Shown here in pieces: positions 3,720 to 6,584 of a stretch of DNA of 64,000 bases; position 1 is the stretch's first letter; the number at the start of each line of letters is the position of its first letter. The DNA is from Escherichia phage vB_EcoM_ULIM3, in sequence record OQ850289, one strand, 5' to 3'. The position numbers and the translations under genes were made by a program. The notes beneath the pieces were generated by a model. It was not told the origin of the DNA. It made no database searches and was given only the letters and a program-made list of their open reading frames with translations.

Positions 3720-5135
3720 ATGAGCGAATTATTTAAACATGCGCACCTTCATGCAGGTCGAACTGAAAATGGTGCTGTAAACCATACTTCATCAATGTCT
3801 GCTCTTGTAGACTTTTACAAAGCTGCTGGTTCAAGCCGTAGCAACGTAGAAATCTTACCAGACCTGTTCTGCAAAGCTTTGCGTGAGGATGTTGATGTCG
3901 CAGTTCGTATTTTGCTTCATATGCGAGATGTACGAGAAGGTATGGGTGAGCGTAAAGCCTTCAGAACTGTTTTGCTTCAAGCGATTGAAGACAAAGTTTT
4001 AGAGCCTACGCAGGTTCTTCGCATTATGGATAAGATTGCAGAACTTGGTCGTTTTGATGACTTCAAAATCTTCGTAGGTACTCGTTTCGAGACAGATGCC
4101 TTCAAACATTTAGAAGCAGCATTACTAGACCCTGCAACAGCAGGTTTGGCGGCTAAGTGGTTACCACGAGTCAAACCACGTCATAAGCAGTTTGTAAAAC
4201 GTTTCTGCAAGTTTGCCAACTTAAGTGAGAAAGAGTACCGCACACTATTGTCTGCACTATCTGATACAGTTGAGCAAAAAATCTCTGCTAATGAGTTTGG
4301 TAAGATTGACTACAGTAAGATTCCTTCACTTGCTGCTGCACGTTACCAAAAACTGTTTAACCGTAAAGATGGAGAACGCTACAAAGCTTACATCGAGTCA
4401 TTATCAAAGGGTGAGGCTAAGATTAATGCTGGTGCTGTTTACCCATACGATGTGATTAAATCTGTTAAGTATGGTAATGCAGATGTTGCTAATGAGCAGT
4501 GGAAAGCACTACCAAACTGGATGGCAGAGGGTGAGAACATTTTGTGTATGACTGATGTCTCAAGCTCAATGTCTTGGGTGAATTTCGGTTCAATCACTGC
4601 TCTTGATATTGGTGTATCTCTTGCACTGTATGTAGCAGAACGCAATACTGGTTGTTTTAAAAATGAGTTAATGGTTTATTCAACAAACCCTCACTTCATC
4701 GAACTGAGTGGTGATTTACGAAACCGTCATCGTCAGGTAATGCGTTATACTGAATATGGTTCAACTAACTTACAAGCAGCTTTTGACCGTATTCTTGAGA
4801 CAGGTAAAAGAAACAACTTGACTCAGAAAGATATGCCAAGTAAGCTTATCATCTTCTCCGATATGGAGTTCAATCAGGTTGATGGAGCTAACGGTCGTAC
4901 AAACTTTGAAGCAATTCAGAGTAAGTACAAAAAAGCTGGATATGAGATGCCACAACTGGTATTCTGGTACTTAGCAAACCGTAATGGTACTTGCGAAGTA
5001 TCTGTTAAGGATAACGGTGTAGCAATGGTATCAGGGTTCTCTCCAGCCACTTTAAAAGCTCTGCTTGGTGGTGAGAAGTTTGACCCAATCAGCGTAATGC
5101 TCAAAGCAGTAATGGTTGACCGTTATATCTGGTAA
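3720..5135 (+). CDS. vWA-domain protein with MIDAS motif; helical N-terminal domain (Ro60/TROVE-like architecture, hypothesis)
   Basis: 471 aa; perfect DxSxS MIDAS (D-V-S-S-S, nt 4549-4563) in C-terminal half; N-terminal RDVREGMGER motif; own promoter at 3651. Confidence 0.65.
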   Translation: MSELFKHAHLHAGRTENGAVNHTSSMSALVDFYKAAGSSRSNVEILPDLFCKALREDVDVAVRILLHMRDVREGMGERKAFRTVLLQAIEDKVLEPTQVLRIMDKIAELGRFDDFKIFVGTRFETDAFKHLEAALLDPATAGLAAKWLPRVKPRHKQFVKRFCKFANLSEKEYRTLLSALSDTVEQKISANEFGKIDYSKIPSLAAARYQKLFNRKDGERYKAYIESLSKGEAKINAGAVYPYDVIKSVKYGNADVANEQWKALPNWMAEGENILCMTDVSSSMSWVNFGSITALDIGVSLALYVAERNTGCFKNELMVYSTNPHFIELSGDLRNRHRQVMRYTEYGSTNLQAAFDRILETGKRNNLTQKDMPSKLIIFSDMEFNQVDGANGRTNFEAIQSKYKKAGYEMPQLVFWYLANRNGTCEVSVKDNGVAMVSGFSPATLKALLGGEKFDPISVMLKAVMVDRYIW

Positions 5136-5145
5136 AAAGTTTTAA

Positions 5146-5182
5146 AAAGGGTATTGACAATGTGTTTAATACCCTTTAATAT
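5146..5182 (+). promoter_or_regulatory. sigma70 promoter within palindrome, upstream of tRNA island
   Basis: TTGACA 5154-5159, exact 17-nt spacer, TAATAT 5177-5182; inverted repeat aagggtatt/aataccctt spans -35 and spacer. Confidence 0.7.
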
Positions 5183-5244: not shown

Positions 5245-5278
5245 TTGACAACCACTAAAAAATAATGTTAAAGTGGTT
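5245..5278 (+). promoter_or_regulatory. second promoter-like element upstream of first tRNA
   Basis: TTGACA 5245-5250 preceded by TTTTAAAAAA; inverted repeat aaccact/agtggtt; weak -10. Confidence 0.4.
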
Positions 5279-5300
5279 ACATAGAGTTTGAAAAGTTTAT

Positions 5301-5377
5301 CTCTGTTTAGCTCAGCTTGGTAGAGCGTTCCGTTTGGGGCGGTAAGGCCGGAGGTTCAAGTCCTCCAACAGAGACCA
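5301..5377 (+). tRNA. tRNA-Pro (TGG)
   Basis: acceptor ctctgtt/aacagag (C1-G72, disc A, CCA encoded); anticodon loop tttgggg; T-arm ggagg-ttcaagt-cctcc; one mismatch in anticodon stem. Confidence 0.6.
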
Positions 5378-5384
5378 AATTAAT

Positions 5385-5462
5385 GTTCCAGTAGACAAAA
5401 TGGTAAAGTCACCACTCTTTCAAAGTGGATATTTGAGGGTTCAAATCCCTTCTGGAACGCCA
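5385..5462 (+). tRNA. tRNA-Glu (TTC)
   Basis: acceptor gttccag/ctggaac; anticodon stem ccact/agtgg, loop ctttcaa; T-loop ttcaaat; CCA encoded. Confidence 0.7.
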
Positions 5463-5467
5463 GTTTT

Positions 5468-5544
5468 GACAGAAGACCAATTGCAGCAAACTTAATCTTA
5501 TTCATCTGAAGGTAAATCGGACAAAGAAGAGATTTGGTCTGGTC
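5468..5544 (+). ncRNA. stem-closed element A (CAGAAGACC...GGTCTGG family)
   Basis: 7-bp helix 5474-5480/5534-5540 (AGACCAA:TTGGTCT) closing a 53-nt AT-rich interior; fills the tRNA-sized spacer between two tRNAs. Confidence 0.4.
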
Positions 5545-5553
5545 ATTAAGAAT

Positions 5554-5630
5554 TGCGGGTATAGAGAAAGGGCGTCTCACATGTCTCATTAGCATGGTAT
5601 CGGCAGGTTCGACTCCTGCACCCGCCTCCA
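5554..5630 (+). tRNA. tRNA with CAT anticodon (Met or Ile2)
   Basis: anticodon stem catgt/gcatg, loop ctcatta; T-arm gcagg-ttcgact-cctgc; acceptor 6/7 paired; CCA encoded. Confidence 0.55.
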
Positions 5631-5634
5631 AATT

Positions 5635-5704
5635 TACAGAAGACCGTTTACAGCAAAATTGAATGAAATTTTTAGCGGAAAAAATTGAAAGATACGGTCT
5701 GGTA
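5635..5704 (+). ncRNA. stem-closed element B (CAGAAGACC...GGTCTGG family)
   Basis: 7-bp helix 5641-5647/5694-5700 (AGACCGT:ACGGTCT); first 28 nt identical to element D. Confidence 0.4.
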
Positions 5705-5715
5705 ATACTAAACAT

Positions 5716-5792
5716 GGTTAGGAAGCACATAAGGTATGTGCGGTCGCCTGTTAAGCGAATGGCACAGGGTTCGAATCCCTGACTAACCGCCA
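5716..5792 (+). tRNA. tRNA-Asn (GTT)
   Basis: acceptor ggttagg/actaacc; anticodon loop ctgttaa; T-arm caggg-ttcgaat-ccctg; CCA encoded. Confidence 0.65.
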
Positions 5793-5801
5793 AATTTAAA
5801 T

Positions 5802-5889
5802 GTGTCGTTATCCCGTAGATGGTAGCGGTGGGGACTGTAAATCCCTTGTCATTGAGACTCGGTAGGTTCGACTCCTACACGGCACACCA
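5802..5889 (+). tRNA. tRNA-Tyr (GTA), long variable arm
   Basis: acceptor gtgtcgt/acggcac; anticodon stem gggga/tccct, loop ctgtaaa; ~15-nt variable arm; T-arm gtagg-ttcgact-cctac. Confidence 0.7.
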
Positions 5890-5894
5890 ATAAA

Positions 5895-5971
5895 GGCTAT
5901 GTAGTTTAACTGGAGAAAATACTCCCCTGTCACGGGAGATGATGTGAGTTCAAGTCTCATCGTAGCCGCCA
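5895..5971 (+). tRNA. tRNA-Asp (GTC)
   Basis: acceptor ggctatg/cgtagcc; anticodon stem ctccc/gggag, loop ctgtcac; CCA encoded. Confidence 0.7.
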
Positions 5972-6056
5972 AATTATAATAAGTATTTCAAAATGATGTT
6001 TTGAGAGGGCTATTTAGCCCCTCCCTTAAAGGGTTCTTACGAGTATCCTTTAAAGG

Positions 6057-6134
6057 AGCAGAAGACCAAATTCAGCAAGTTACTTAAAATTTCAAGCCAA
6101 TTTAATTTTGAAAAATTTAAAACTTGGTCTGGCT
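6057..6134 (+). ncRNA. stem-closed element C (CAGAAGACC...GGTCTGG family)
   Basis: 7-bp helix 6063-6069/6124-6130 (AGACCAA:TTGGTCT); interior AT-rich hairpin. Confidence 0.4.
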
Positions 6135-6143
6135 CAACAAATT

Positions 6144-6278
6144 TACAGAAGACCGTTTACAGCAAAACTTAAACAATCTATTTCTCGGTAAAGAAAAGGC
6201 GAAGGTTCGATTCCTTCACTCGGCAGATGTCGAGTTGGTGTAATGGCAGCACTTAAGATGATAAACAACGGTCTGGTA
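6144..6278 (+). ncRNA. stem-closed element D with internal tRNA-like module
   Basis: 8-bp helix 6150-6157/6267-6274 (AGACCGTT:AACGGTCT); interior has T-arm-like gaagg-ttcgatt-ccttc (6201-6217) and D-loop-like agttggtgtaatgg (6231-6246) but no full cloverleaf. Confidence 0.4.
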
Positions 6279-6421
6279 ATTATCTTTGTAGATAAGTTAT
6301 TAAGCTTACCTGTGAGTATGCGACCACAAAGGGTGAAAGGGTAAATTCTAGATTTAAACCCAAAAAGGCACATCGCTACAGACCTTAAGCAAGTCTGGGT
6401 AGCTTATCTACAAAGATAATT
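6278..6421 (+). repeat. 19-bp perfect inverted repeat (6278-6296 / 6403-6421) enclosing 106 nt
   Basis: aattatctttgtagataag and its exact reverse complement; lies between element D and tRNA-Lys. Confidence 0.75.
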
Positions 6422-6425
6422 TAAT

Positions 6426-6501
6426 GGAAGTGTAGCAGAATGGTGATGCGGCAGACTTTTAATCTGACAGGCGATGGGTTCGAATCCCTCCACTTCTACC
6501 A
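6426..6501 (+). tRNA. tRNA-Lys (TTT)
   Basis: acceptor ggaagtg/cacttct; anticodon loop cttttaa; T-loop ttcgaat (T-stem only 3 bp); CCA encoded. Confidence 0.6.
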
Positions 6502-6505
6502 AAAT

Positions 6506-6582
6506 GGTTCAGTCGCAGATAAGGTAATGCAAGGGTCTCATAAGCCCTATGAATGTGGGTTCGATTCCCATCTGAACCTCCA
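6506..6582 (+). tRNA. tRNA-Met (CAT)
   Basis: acceptor ggttcag/ctgaacc; anticodon stem agggt/gccct, loop ctcataa; CCA encoded. Confidence 0.7.
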
Positions 6583-6584
6583 AT

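Follow-up and report, generated by a model that had tools for sequence, protein, structure and literature searches.

A conserved RNA fold with a long terminal stem and a predicted loop-to-junction pseudoknot adjoins tRNA-Lys in Felix O1-like phages

Here, we describe a structured RNA element in the tRNA cluster of Escherichia phage vB_EcoM_ULIM3 (sequence record OQ850289), of which a stretch of 64,000 nucleotides (hereafter, the window) was analysed. An exact 19-bp inverted repeat, AATTATCTTTGTAGATAAG at 6278-6296 and its reverse complement at 6403-6421, encloses 106 nt between a YrlA-like RNA (element D) and tRNA-Lys(UUU). We read this repeat as, probably, the ~23-bp terminal helix (P1) of a structured non-coding RNA of ~144 nt, encoded on the + strand within a unit of tRNA and Y-like RNA genes. 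It is very likely that an RNA structure is under selection at this locus. We show the structure, strand, conservation, and position of the element below, while its processing and function are put forward as proposals.

An earlier note on this DNA had reported the perfect repeat and its 106-nt interior, and the coordinates it gave are exact. If one mismatch is allowed, the arms lengthen to 22 nt (6278-6299 and 6400-6421). At the RNA level, where G·U pairs count, 24 pairs form between the P1 5' strand (AAUUAUCUUUGUAGAUAAGUUAUU, 6278-6301), which contains the left arm and is supported by pairing and covariation, and the P1 3' strand (GGUAGCUUAUCUACAAAGAUAAUU, 6398-6421), which contains the right arm. 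A 156-nt stretch has a folding energy of -48.3 kcal/mol, compared with -30.1 ± 3.8 kcal/mol for shuffled sequences (z = -4.8), and none of 200 shuffles folds as well. P1 starts 1 nt past the upstream RNA, element D, which ends with GGTCTGG at 6270-6276; the repeat begins one base later. At its other side, P1 ends 4 nt before tRNA-Lys(UUU), whose first nucleotide ARAGORN places at 6426 (leader UAAU plus tRNA, 6422-6501, + strand). The stem abuts the upstream RNA on one side and the 5' end of tRNA-Lys on the other.

The interior of the element contains a second conserved helix. This hairpin, H3 (6379-6397, + strand), consists of a CAGAC/GUCUG stem (6379-6383 and 6393-6397) and a 9-nt loop, CUUAAGCAA, at 6384-6392. 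It directly abuts the P1 3' strand with no spacer in the window, and with 0-1 nt across lineages. Two nucleotides past the P1 5' strand, GCUUA (6304-6308) can pair with UAAGC (6386-6390) inside the H3 loop, forming a predicted pseudoknot. The earlier note had placed a hairpin at around 6381-6397, close to its actual extent, and had missed both its conservation and the pairing of its loop with the 5' junction.

The window belongs to a Felixounavirus genome, and close relatives retain the element almost unchanged. Felix O1 (AF320576, 24698-24855) matches a 158-nt stretch at 100% identity, and identity is at least 95% in 185 of the 195 phage records that match it. A homologue of ~140-170 nt lies just 5' of tRNA-Lys(UUU) in every relative having that tRNA, and the element is kept even in contigs whose neighbouring protein shares only ~53-62% identity. 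Alignment of the relatives reveals two sequence types of the unit, I and II, whose arms differ by compensated changes. In P1, GUAG/CUAC is replaced by GCAG/CUGC and 1 nt is deleted from both arms; in H3, CAGAC/GUCUG is replaced by CAAACC/GGUUUG, which is again compensated.

More distant genomes were reached via homologues of a Ro60-like protein encoded upstream of the element and via Ounavirinae records. All model searches used a covariance model, R1, built from type II sequences alone (alignment A4). R1 matches the window at 55.9 bits (E = 1e-13), full-length and on the + strand. It also matches, full-length, on the + strand, and at the equivalent position, lineage L042 (46.2 bits; protein 62% identical), Yersinia phage P778 (L044; 41.9 bits), L135 (37.8 bits), L043 (28.9 bits), L134 (28.0 bits), and Pectobacterium phage Arno18 (L008; 26.8 bits). 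Inspection by eye and folding added the versions in Pectobacterium phage Wc4 (L132), L133, and L136. In every lineage, the element sits 0-28 nt 5' of a tRNA-Lys gene. The adjoining gene is tRNA-Lys(UUU) except in L135, which has tRNA-Lys(CUU) in that place and tRNA-Lys(UUU) after it. Across the lineages, P1 is separated from tRNA-Lys by 0-10 nt in most and by 28 nt in L135.

We find that the same three features recur across these lineages. All 12 lineages have a P1 of 21-25 bp, with energies between -25 and -33 kcal/mol, even though its sequences are quite different. H3 has a stem of 5-6 bp and a 9-nt loop, with the motif C(U/C)UU(A/U)AGCAA in nearly all lineages. The H3 loop is complementary over 5-7 bp to a strand 0-4 nt past the P1 5' arm. 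The junction and loop strands of this pseudoknot are GCUUA and UAAGC in the window; GCUAA and UUAGC in type II and in P778; UUGCUUA and UAAGCAA in L042, Arno18, and Wc4; UUGCUU and AAGCAA in L043; and UUGUUCA and UGAACAA in L134, with two compensated changes. Loop position 4 and its pseudoknot partner occur as A-U, U-A, and G-C.

Covariation was scored on two alignments. The first, A5, comprises gapless, hand-registered constructs from 11 lineages, covering the top 10 bp of P1, the pseudoknot, and H3. Here, 92.1% of cells are paired, compared with 59.6% when shuffled (0 of 500 as high) and 31.6-42.7% in slid registers. Both sides have changed in 17 of 22 pairs, and the covariation score is 0.90 versus 0.22. 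H3 is paired in 100% of A5 cells, with both-side changes in four of its five pairs. In the second, the covariance-model alignment A6, pairing is 92.4% overall and again 100% in H3, and double changes are found in 22 of 23 P1 pairs and five of six H3 pairs. The earlier note had suggested a long RNA duplex acting as a processing substrate. The duplex itself is strongly supported: at least 12 lineages keep it through compensatory changes, its length stays within 21-25 bp, and it is better on the tRNA-sense strand.

The region between the pseudoknot strand and H3 is variable and holds one to three extra hairpins. In the window, the first is H1 (6311-6328, + strand; UGUG-AGUAUGCGAC-CACA), which is less conserved. 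L042 has GGGG-AGUAUGCGG-CCCC in the same place, and the loop AGUAUGCG is common to both. This helix, the second of the model, is 89% paired in A6, an alignment that is itself fitted to the model. The next hairpin, H2 (6339-6361, + strand), has an apex, UUCUAGAUU, common to types I and II, and its stem covaries within type II (G-C/A-U and U-A/C-G). Distant lineages carry a GUG-UAACGUU-CAC hairpin in the interior.

Searches for further members gave little. The only addition from blastn with the Arno18, P778, and L043 versions was Wc4. A pattern scan of IMG/VR with TTGCTT-N65-95-CCTTAAGCAAG, which combines the pseudoknot strand with the loop motif, returned 87 stretches. Of these, 80 were scored with the model and the best folders were viewed by eye, and every one proved to be a chance match. 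R1 found no match at loci with more distant DUF2828 genes (L037-L041, Vibrio PG216, and Klebsiella phi1_175008), and none in the Kolesnikvirus genomes phiEa104 and SB18. Two arrangements elsewhere resemble the element. At ~2895-3065 of L007, a hairpin with loop-junction complementarity (UUCACCUC / GAGGUGAA) was recognized by eye alone. In Klebsiella phage phi1_175008 (L139, Stephanstirmvirinae), a 108-nt spacer just 5' of tRNA-Lys (11398-11505) folds to an AU-rich stem longer than 20 bp with small hairpins enclosed by it. UAGCAA/UUGCUA forms the top of the stem, and another UAGCAA lies inside. R1 does not match this spacer, which may be analogous, or very distantly related, to the element.

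Stem energies and model scores are both biased by strand, which argues that selection acts on the + strand RNA rather than on a DNA palindrome. As a result of G·U pairs, 9 of 11 lineages have a stronger P1 on the tRNA-sense strand (the energies sum to -316 versus -251 kcal/mol), and R1 scores at the locus are far higher on the + strand than on the - strand for most lineages. A DNA-level element, such as a miniature inverted-repeat transposable element (MITE), a cruciform, or a protein-binding palindrome (e.g., a homing-endonuclease or recombination site), is very improbable. The earlier note had likened the arms to the terminal inverted repeats of a 144-bp miniature insertion, and this genome, taken alone, does resemble a MITE in having 144 bp bounded by a perfect 19-bp inverted repeat. 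Furthermore, HNH homing endonuclease genes have been gained and lost in the tRNA region among relatives. However, the unit is present once in the window, and its 198 places in 195 phage records amount to about one per record, with no match in 5,426 complete E. coli genomes. The 19-mer itself, with up to three mismatches, has no copy besides the two arms in the 64-kb window (chance expectation, 0.03), and none of 100 shuffled sequences reached two copies; the note had proposed a search for further copies. It had also proposed to ask whether the 144-bp unit is missing as a block from related phages. We found no empty site: the homologous unit is kept in the relatives aligned, and in all close relatives a spacer of 423-454 nt separates tRNA-Asp from tRNA-Lys. 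The flanks (GGT before the unit, TAA after it) show no target-site duplication, the arms vary in sequence while pairing persists, and G·U pairs make the stem strand-specific. The one natural loss described below, in L019, is a larger deletion with other end points, not a precise excision. A MITE was rejected on the grounds of single copy, absence of target-site duplication and of empty sites, and covarying arms. No genome examined carries the interior without the repeat.

It is extremely improbable that the locus is instead a small protein-coding gene or a transcription terminator between RNA genes. Open reading frames of 33 amino acids (6243-6344, + strand) and 76 amino acids (6143-6373, - strand) overlap the element, and several GenBank records annotate a coding sequence there (Felix O1 "unknown", wV8 gene 48, and others). 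Against coding, types I and II differ by indels of 1, 2, and 4 nt with no frame kept, and substitutions track base-pairing, not codons. The "hypothetical protein" annotations over these RNA elements are probably spurious. As for a terminator, the AU-rich stem is followed by UAAU and a tRNA, not by a U-tract, and a + strand scan of 5300-6660 detected no terminator-like site.

The element does not correspond to a catalogued RNA. Comparison of 6278-6421 with the covariance models of Rfam 15, which include self-cleaving ribozymes, riboswitches, transfer-messenger RNA (tmRNA), and 6S RNA, gave no match at E <= 5 (5.8 kb) or E <= 10 (301 nt). Neither ARAGORN nor the Rfam tRNA model found a tRNA or tmRNA in the same interval, and the H3 loop is not a T-loop. 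Hammerhead-, twister-, and hepatitis delta virus-like readings were considered by eye and set aside, as the strand order is unfit and Rfam gave no match. Mimicry of the adjacent tRNA-Lys anticodon stem by the H3 stem (CAGAC versus CAGA) was dropped as well: the H3 stem varies freely elsewhere, and in Arno18, the sole case compared, by eye, the tRNA-Lys anticodon stem is unrelated to the H3 stem.

The element is embedded in a run of 26 tRNA genes on the same strand. Promoter-like sites lie at 5154-5182 and 5245-5274, before the first tRNA, and the next at 6675-6703, after tRNA-Ile. Given these sites and the lack of a terminator-like site between them, co-transcription of the element with tRNA-Pro through tRNA-Ile is most likely. 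The leaders of the 26 tRNA genes (5301-10245) are nearly all composed of A and U (AAUUAAU or AUUUAAU), and adjacent tRNAs are 1-9 nt apart, which suggests a uniform processing context.

We propose that, in the folded precursor, P1 would draw the 3' end of the upstream RNA close to the 5' end of tRNA-Lys. Because P1 ends so near the first nucleotide of tRNA-Lys, RNase P cleavage there would leave a 3' tail of just 0-10 nt on the element in most lineages. The two-turn, AU-rich P1 could be cut by host RNase III in the manner of the stalks that flank rRNAs, releasing the neighbours and the core RNA. E. coli RNase III requires a near-perfect, AU-rich duplex of two helical turns, with length rather than sequence conserved. 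P1 resembles the RNase III stalks of 16S and 23S rRNA and of T7 early-mRNA sites in being a duplex of about two turns that flanks an RNA within a polycistronic precursor, in keeping its length but not its sequence, and in having tRNAs nearby. In the predicted fold, at least 20 bp form from the flanks of the embedded RNA in 12 lineages, as in such stalks. P1 differs from them in that it encloses an RNA of ~100 nt and not an rRNA, and in that its duplex is nearly perfect; many T7 RNase III sites carry an internal loop. In a close alternative, an uncut P1 would act as a clamp that shields both ends of a stable small RNA from exonucleases, and the neighbours would be released too. We favour the processing stalk over the end clamp, because the duplex fits the needs of RNase III and the arrangement mirrors that of rRNA stalks. 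Judged from sequence, however, we consider it an even call whether RNase III actually cuts P1.

Two more long spacers in the window end in tRNA-leader hairpins, which argues for a processing role for such stems. tRNA-Leu(UAG), which starts at 7569, is immediately preceded by a hairpin at 7478-7567 whose 26-nt arms are 85% complementary (z = -5.3). At its base, the stem of this hairpin (GUCUUUUUAGAG / CUCUAAAAAGAU) is similar to the stem of the element, and the hairpin has the same junction, in which ...AAAGAUUUAAU is followed by GG. This hairpin may be a simpler paralogue of the element or the same kind of leader stalk. At 6868-6906, a 16-bp hairpin, AUCUUUAAGGGCUUUC-UAA-GAGAGUCUUUAAAGAU, is followed by UAAU (4 nt) and by tRNA-Arg(UCU) at 6907; with it, the leader hairpins built on an AUCUUU/AAAGAU base number three. 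The tRNA-Leu and tRNA-Arg leader hairpins both finish with AAAGAU and UUAAU. In addition, a 14-nt inverted repeat (93% complementary; 7209-7222 and 7311-7324) surrounds tRNA-Ser(UGA) at 7223-7312, and would form a stem enclosing the entire tRNA in the style of a processing stalk.

If these stems serve processing, the element might be a pure spacer, its hairpin no more than an RNase III or RNase P signal between the Y-like RNA and tRNA-Lys and its interior degraded filler. The interior does diverge strongly: H1 and H2 have little in common between types I and II, and lineages carry from three to five hairpins. The leader hairpins at 7478-7567 and ~6868-6902 manage without a complex interior, and the element is dispensable in L019. 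We nevertheless regard a pure spacer as unlikely. H3, its loop motif, and the pseudoknot are kept by compensation where the neighbouring protein is ~53-55% identical, as filler would not be, and the H2 apex UUCUAGAUU and H1 loop AGUAUGCG are kept between otherwise diverged types. Since a plain hairpin is enough for processing, yet H3 and the pseudoknot are conserved, the core RNA likely has a role beyond processing, and the pseudoknot-capped core would be selected in its own right.

Several points weigh against a terminal helix that closes a functional, pseudoknotted RNA. A5 was registered by hand and A6 was fitted to the model, so both alignments lean towards structure. L133 and L136 have a weak or ambiguous pseudoknot. 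When L132 and L134 are folded to minimum energy, the same complementarity goes into a longer P1, not into H3, which could reflect a two-state switch instead of a static pseudoknot. The linkers among P1, H3, and the pseudoknot are just 0-2 nt, and the coexistence of the three in three dimensions is an assumption. RNase III has no strict consensus, so stem length alone is no proof of cleavage, and the long closing stem could merely insulate folding from the neighbouring tRNAs. Furthermore, lineage L019 (IMGVR_UViG_2706796742_000001) carries a natural deletion (6460-6545) in which the T arms of module D and of tRNA-Lys have become fused; module D has lost its 3' half, tRNA-Lys(UUU) is mostly gone, and the element is missing entirely. 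As L019 was sequenced without the element, the element is dispensable there. The tRNA genes of phage Bas63 were likewise scored as mostly non-essential (Bas63 preprint).

The RNA operon is headed by a gene for a Ro60-fold protein (3720-5135, + strand), which contains DUF2828 and DUF7788 (Pfam) and belongs to PHROG 850, "RNA-binding protein". An AlphaFold2 model (predicted local distance difference test score, 85) has a Ro60/TROVE fold plus a von Willebrand factor A fold, and its top 10 PDB matches are all Ro60, TROVE, or Rsr proteins, one of them a phage Ro60. Relatives of the DUF2828 + DUF7788 protein occur in 709 phage records, including a mycobacteriophage "Ro-like RNA binding protein". The orthologue in the Felixounavirus Bas63, gp130, is reported to counter the Ppl defence (Bas63 preprint). 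That preprint also speculates that some "tRNA genes" are Y RNAs, none of which is mapped there.

Four Y-RNA-like modules, A-D, of one shared design lie just upstream of the element at 5470-5547, 5637-5703, 6059-6133, and 6146-6277. Common to all four are a 4-bp stem, a 5' AGA bulge, and a 7-bp AGACCNN/NNGGUCU stem, a bulged bipartite pattern of the form NNNC-AGA-AGACCNN ... NNGGUCU-GNNN, together with a conserved single-stranded UUNCAGCAA. Module D, the YrlA-like element D at 6146-6277 (+ strand), comprises the bulged stem CAGA-AGACCGU/ACGGUCU-GG, a T arm at 6201-6217, a closed 7-bp acceptor, and a D-like arm, and the order of these parts is that described for bacterial YrlA Y RNAs (PMC4201824). 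From their sequences and predicted folds, we regard modules A-D as candidate Y RNAs for the Ro60-fold protein. In L043, L133, L134, and L136, YrlA-like homologues with covarying stems (GUGUC/GACAC and GACUGC/GCAGUC) and the same UUUACAGCAAA are found between tRNA-Lys and tRNA-Leu. Because the YrlA-like module switches to the far side of tRNA-Lys in these four, the constant partner of the element is tRNA-Lys.

This bears on whether the element might itself be a fifth Y RNA, a ligand of the phage Ro60-like protein whose terminal stem binds Ro and whose interior is an effector module. Metazoan Y RNAs have paired 5' and 3' ends, a stem of more than 20 bp, and a large loop domain, an overall plan that the element shares. 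As with YrlA/YrlB and Ro60/Rsr, a Ro60-fold gene is nearby (~1.1 kb upstream), a terminal stem forms from both ends, and a YrlA-like RNA is the neighbour, 1 nt away; the anti-Ppl activity of gp130 adds to the appeal. Unlike YrlA/YrlB, however, the element lacks the putative Ro-binding motif common to modules A-D (the CAGA-AGACC/GGUCU-GG bulged stem and UUNCAGCAA), and it lacks the tRNA-like domain, with no T-arm or D-arm module. It also persists without an adjacent Ro60-like gene: such a gene is near the element in the window and in the DUF2828-bearing contigs, whereas Arno18 and Wc4 keep the element although the fetched region has no Ro60-like gene from the DUF5681 gene up to the tRNAs. With tRNA-Lys rather than the Y-like module as its constant partner, the element is improbable as a Y RNA.

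A trans-acting role in counter-defence, or as a factor linked to tRNA-Lys, appears quite unlikely. The element would here be a decoy or cofactor against a PrrC-type anticodon nuclease, or a Ro60-like/Y-RNA partner against Ppl. The linkage to tRNA-Lys(UUU) would then be functional and not a convenience of processing; as a decoy or cofactor, the element would see tRNA-Lys(UUU) protected or replaced under anticodon-nuclease attack.

Phage tRNA clusters such as those of T4 and T5 have long been known to hold stable RNAs without known function. These include T4 species 1 (rnaC) and species 2 (rnaD), and T5 RNA I, III, IV, 1, 2, 2H, and X. The element resembles them in size (~100-170 nt), in lying on the tRNA strand, in being non-coding, and in having paired ends around several hairpins. 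T4 species 1 RNA is reportedly cut in vitro by RNase III. The folds differ, however. A T arm and an acceptor end make T4 rnaC and several T5 RNAs tRNA-like, whereas the element has no tRNA features; its stem is ~23 bp, compared with ~10-12 bp in the T4 and T5 RNAs, and the loop-to-junction pseudoknot is its own. R1, run on the T4 region with filters off, gave nothing above noise and no match at rnaC or rnaD, and on the T5 region it matched neither the stable RNAs nor the fMet-Lys spacer.

Neither Rfam nor the Felix O1 genome paper nor the other literature searched describes the element family. Structured small RNAs in phage tRNA clusters are a known kind; the Felix O1-like family with P1, H3, and the pseudoknot is new. 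It adds a covariation-supported RNA family from the Felix O1 group, whose phages are used in Salmonella typing and biocontrol, to the cluster RNAs of the T4 and T5 type, and P1, H3, and the pseudoknot offer concrete features to mutate. It also corrects the "hypothetical protein" labels that many GenBank records place across this stretch. The operon as a whole combines a Ro60-fold gene, anti-Ppl in Bas63, with four candidate Y RNAs not mapped before, and the locus is a compact system for studying phage Ro60-RNA particles and their companion RNAs.

Other non-coding RNAs accompany the element in some relatives. Directly upstream of it in Arno18 (L008, 3068-3195) and Wc4 (L132, 1378-1495) is a tRNA-like RNA with an acceptor stem, a T arm, and an insertion of ~55 nt, which recalls T4 species 1 in also ending in a T arm and acceptor strand. 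A further conserved non-coding RNA, missing from the window, occurs in L007 (1650-1830), L008 (1545-1830), L043 (5575-5760), and L044 (6975-7210), and also in L009, L132, and L136. It has a tRNA-like core between GAGAGCUUUAGAGG ... CUCUAAAGGUAGC, then AAUAACACGAGGCGACAG...GCGCCUACUCU. This RNA is mostly upstream of tRNA-Pro, follows tRNA-Ala in L044, and is called an undetermined tRNA by ARAGORN or tRNAscan in some records.

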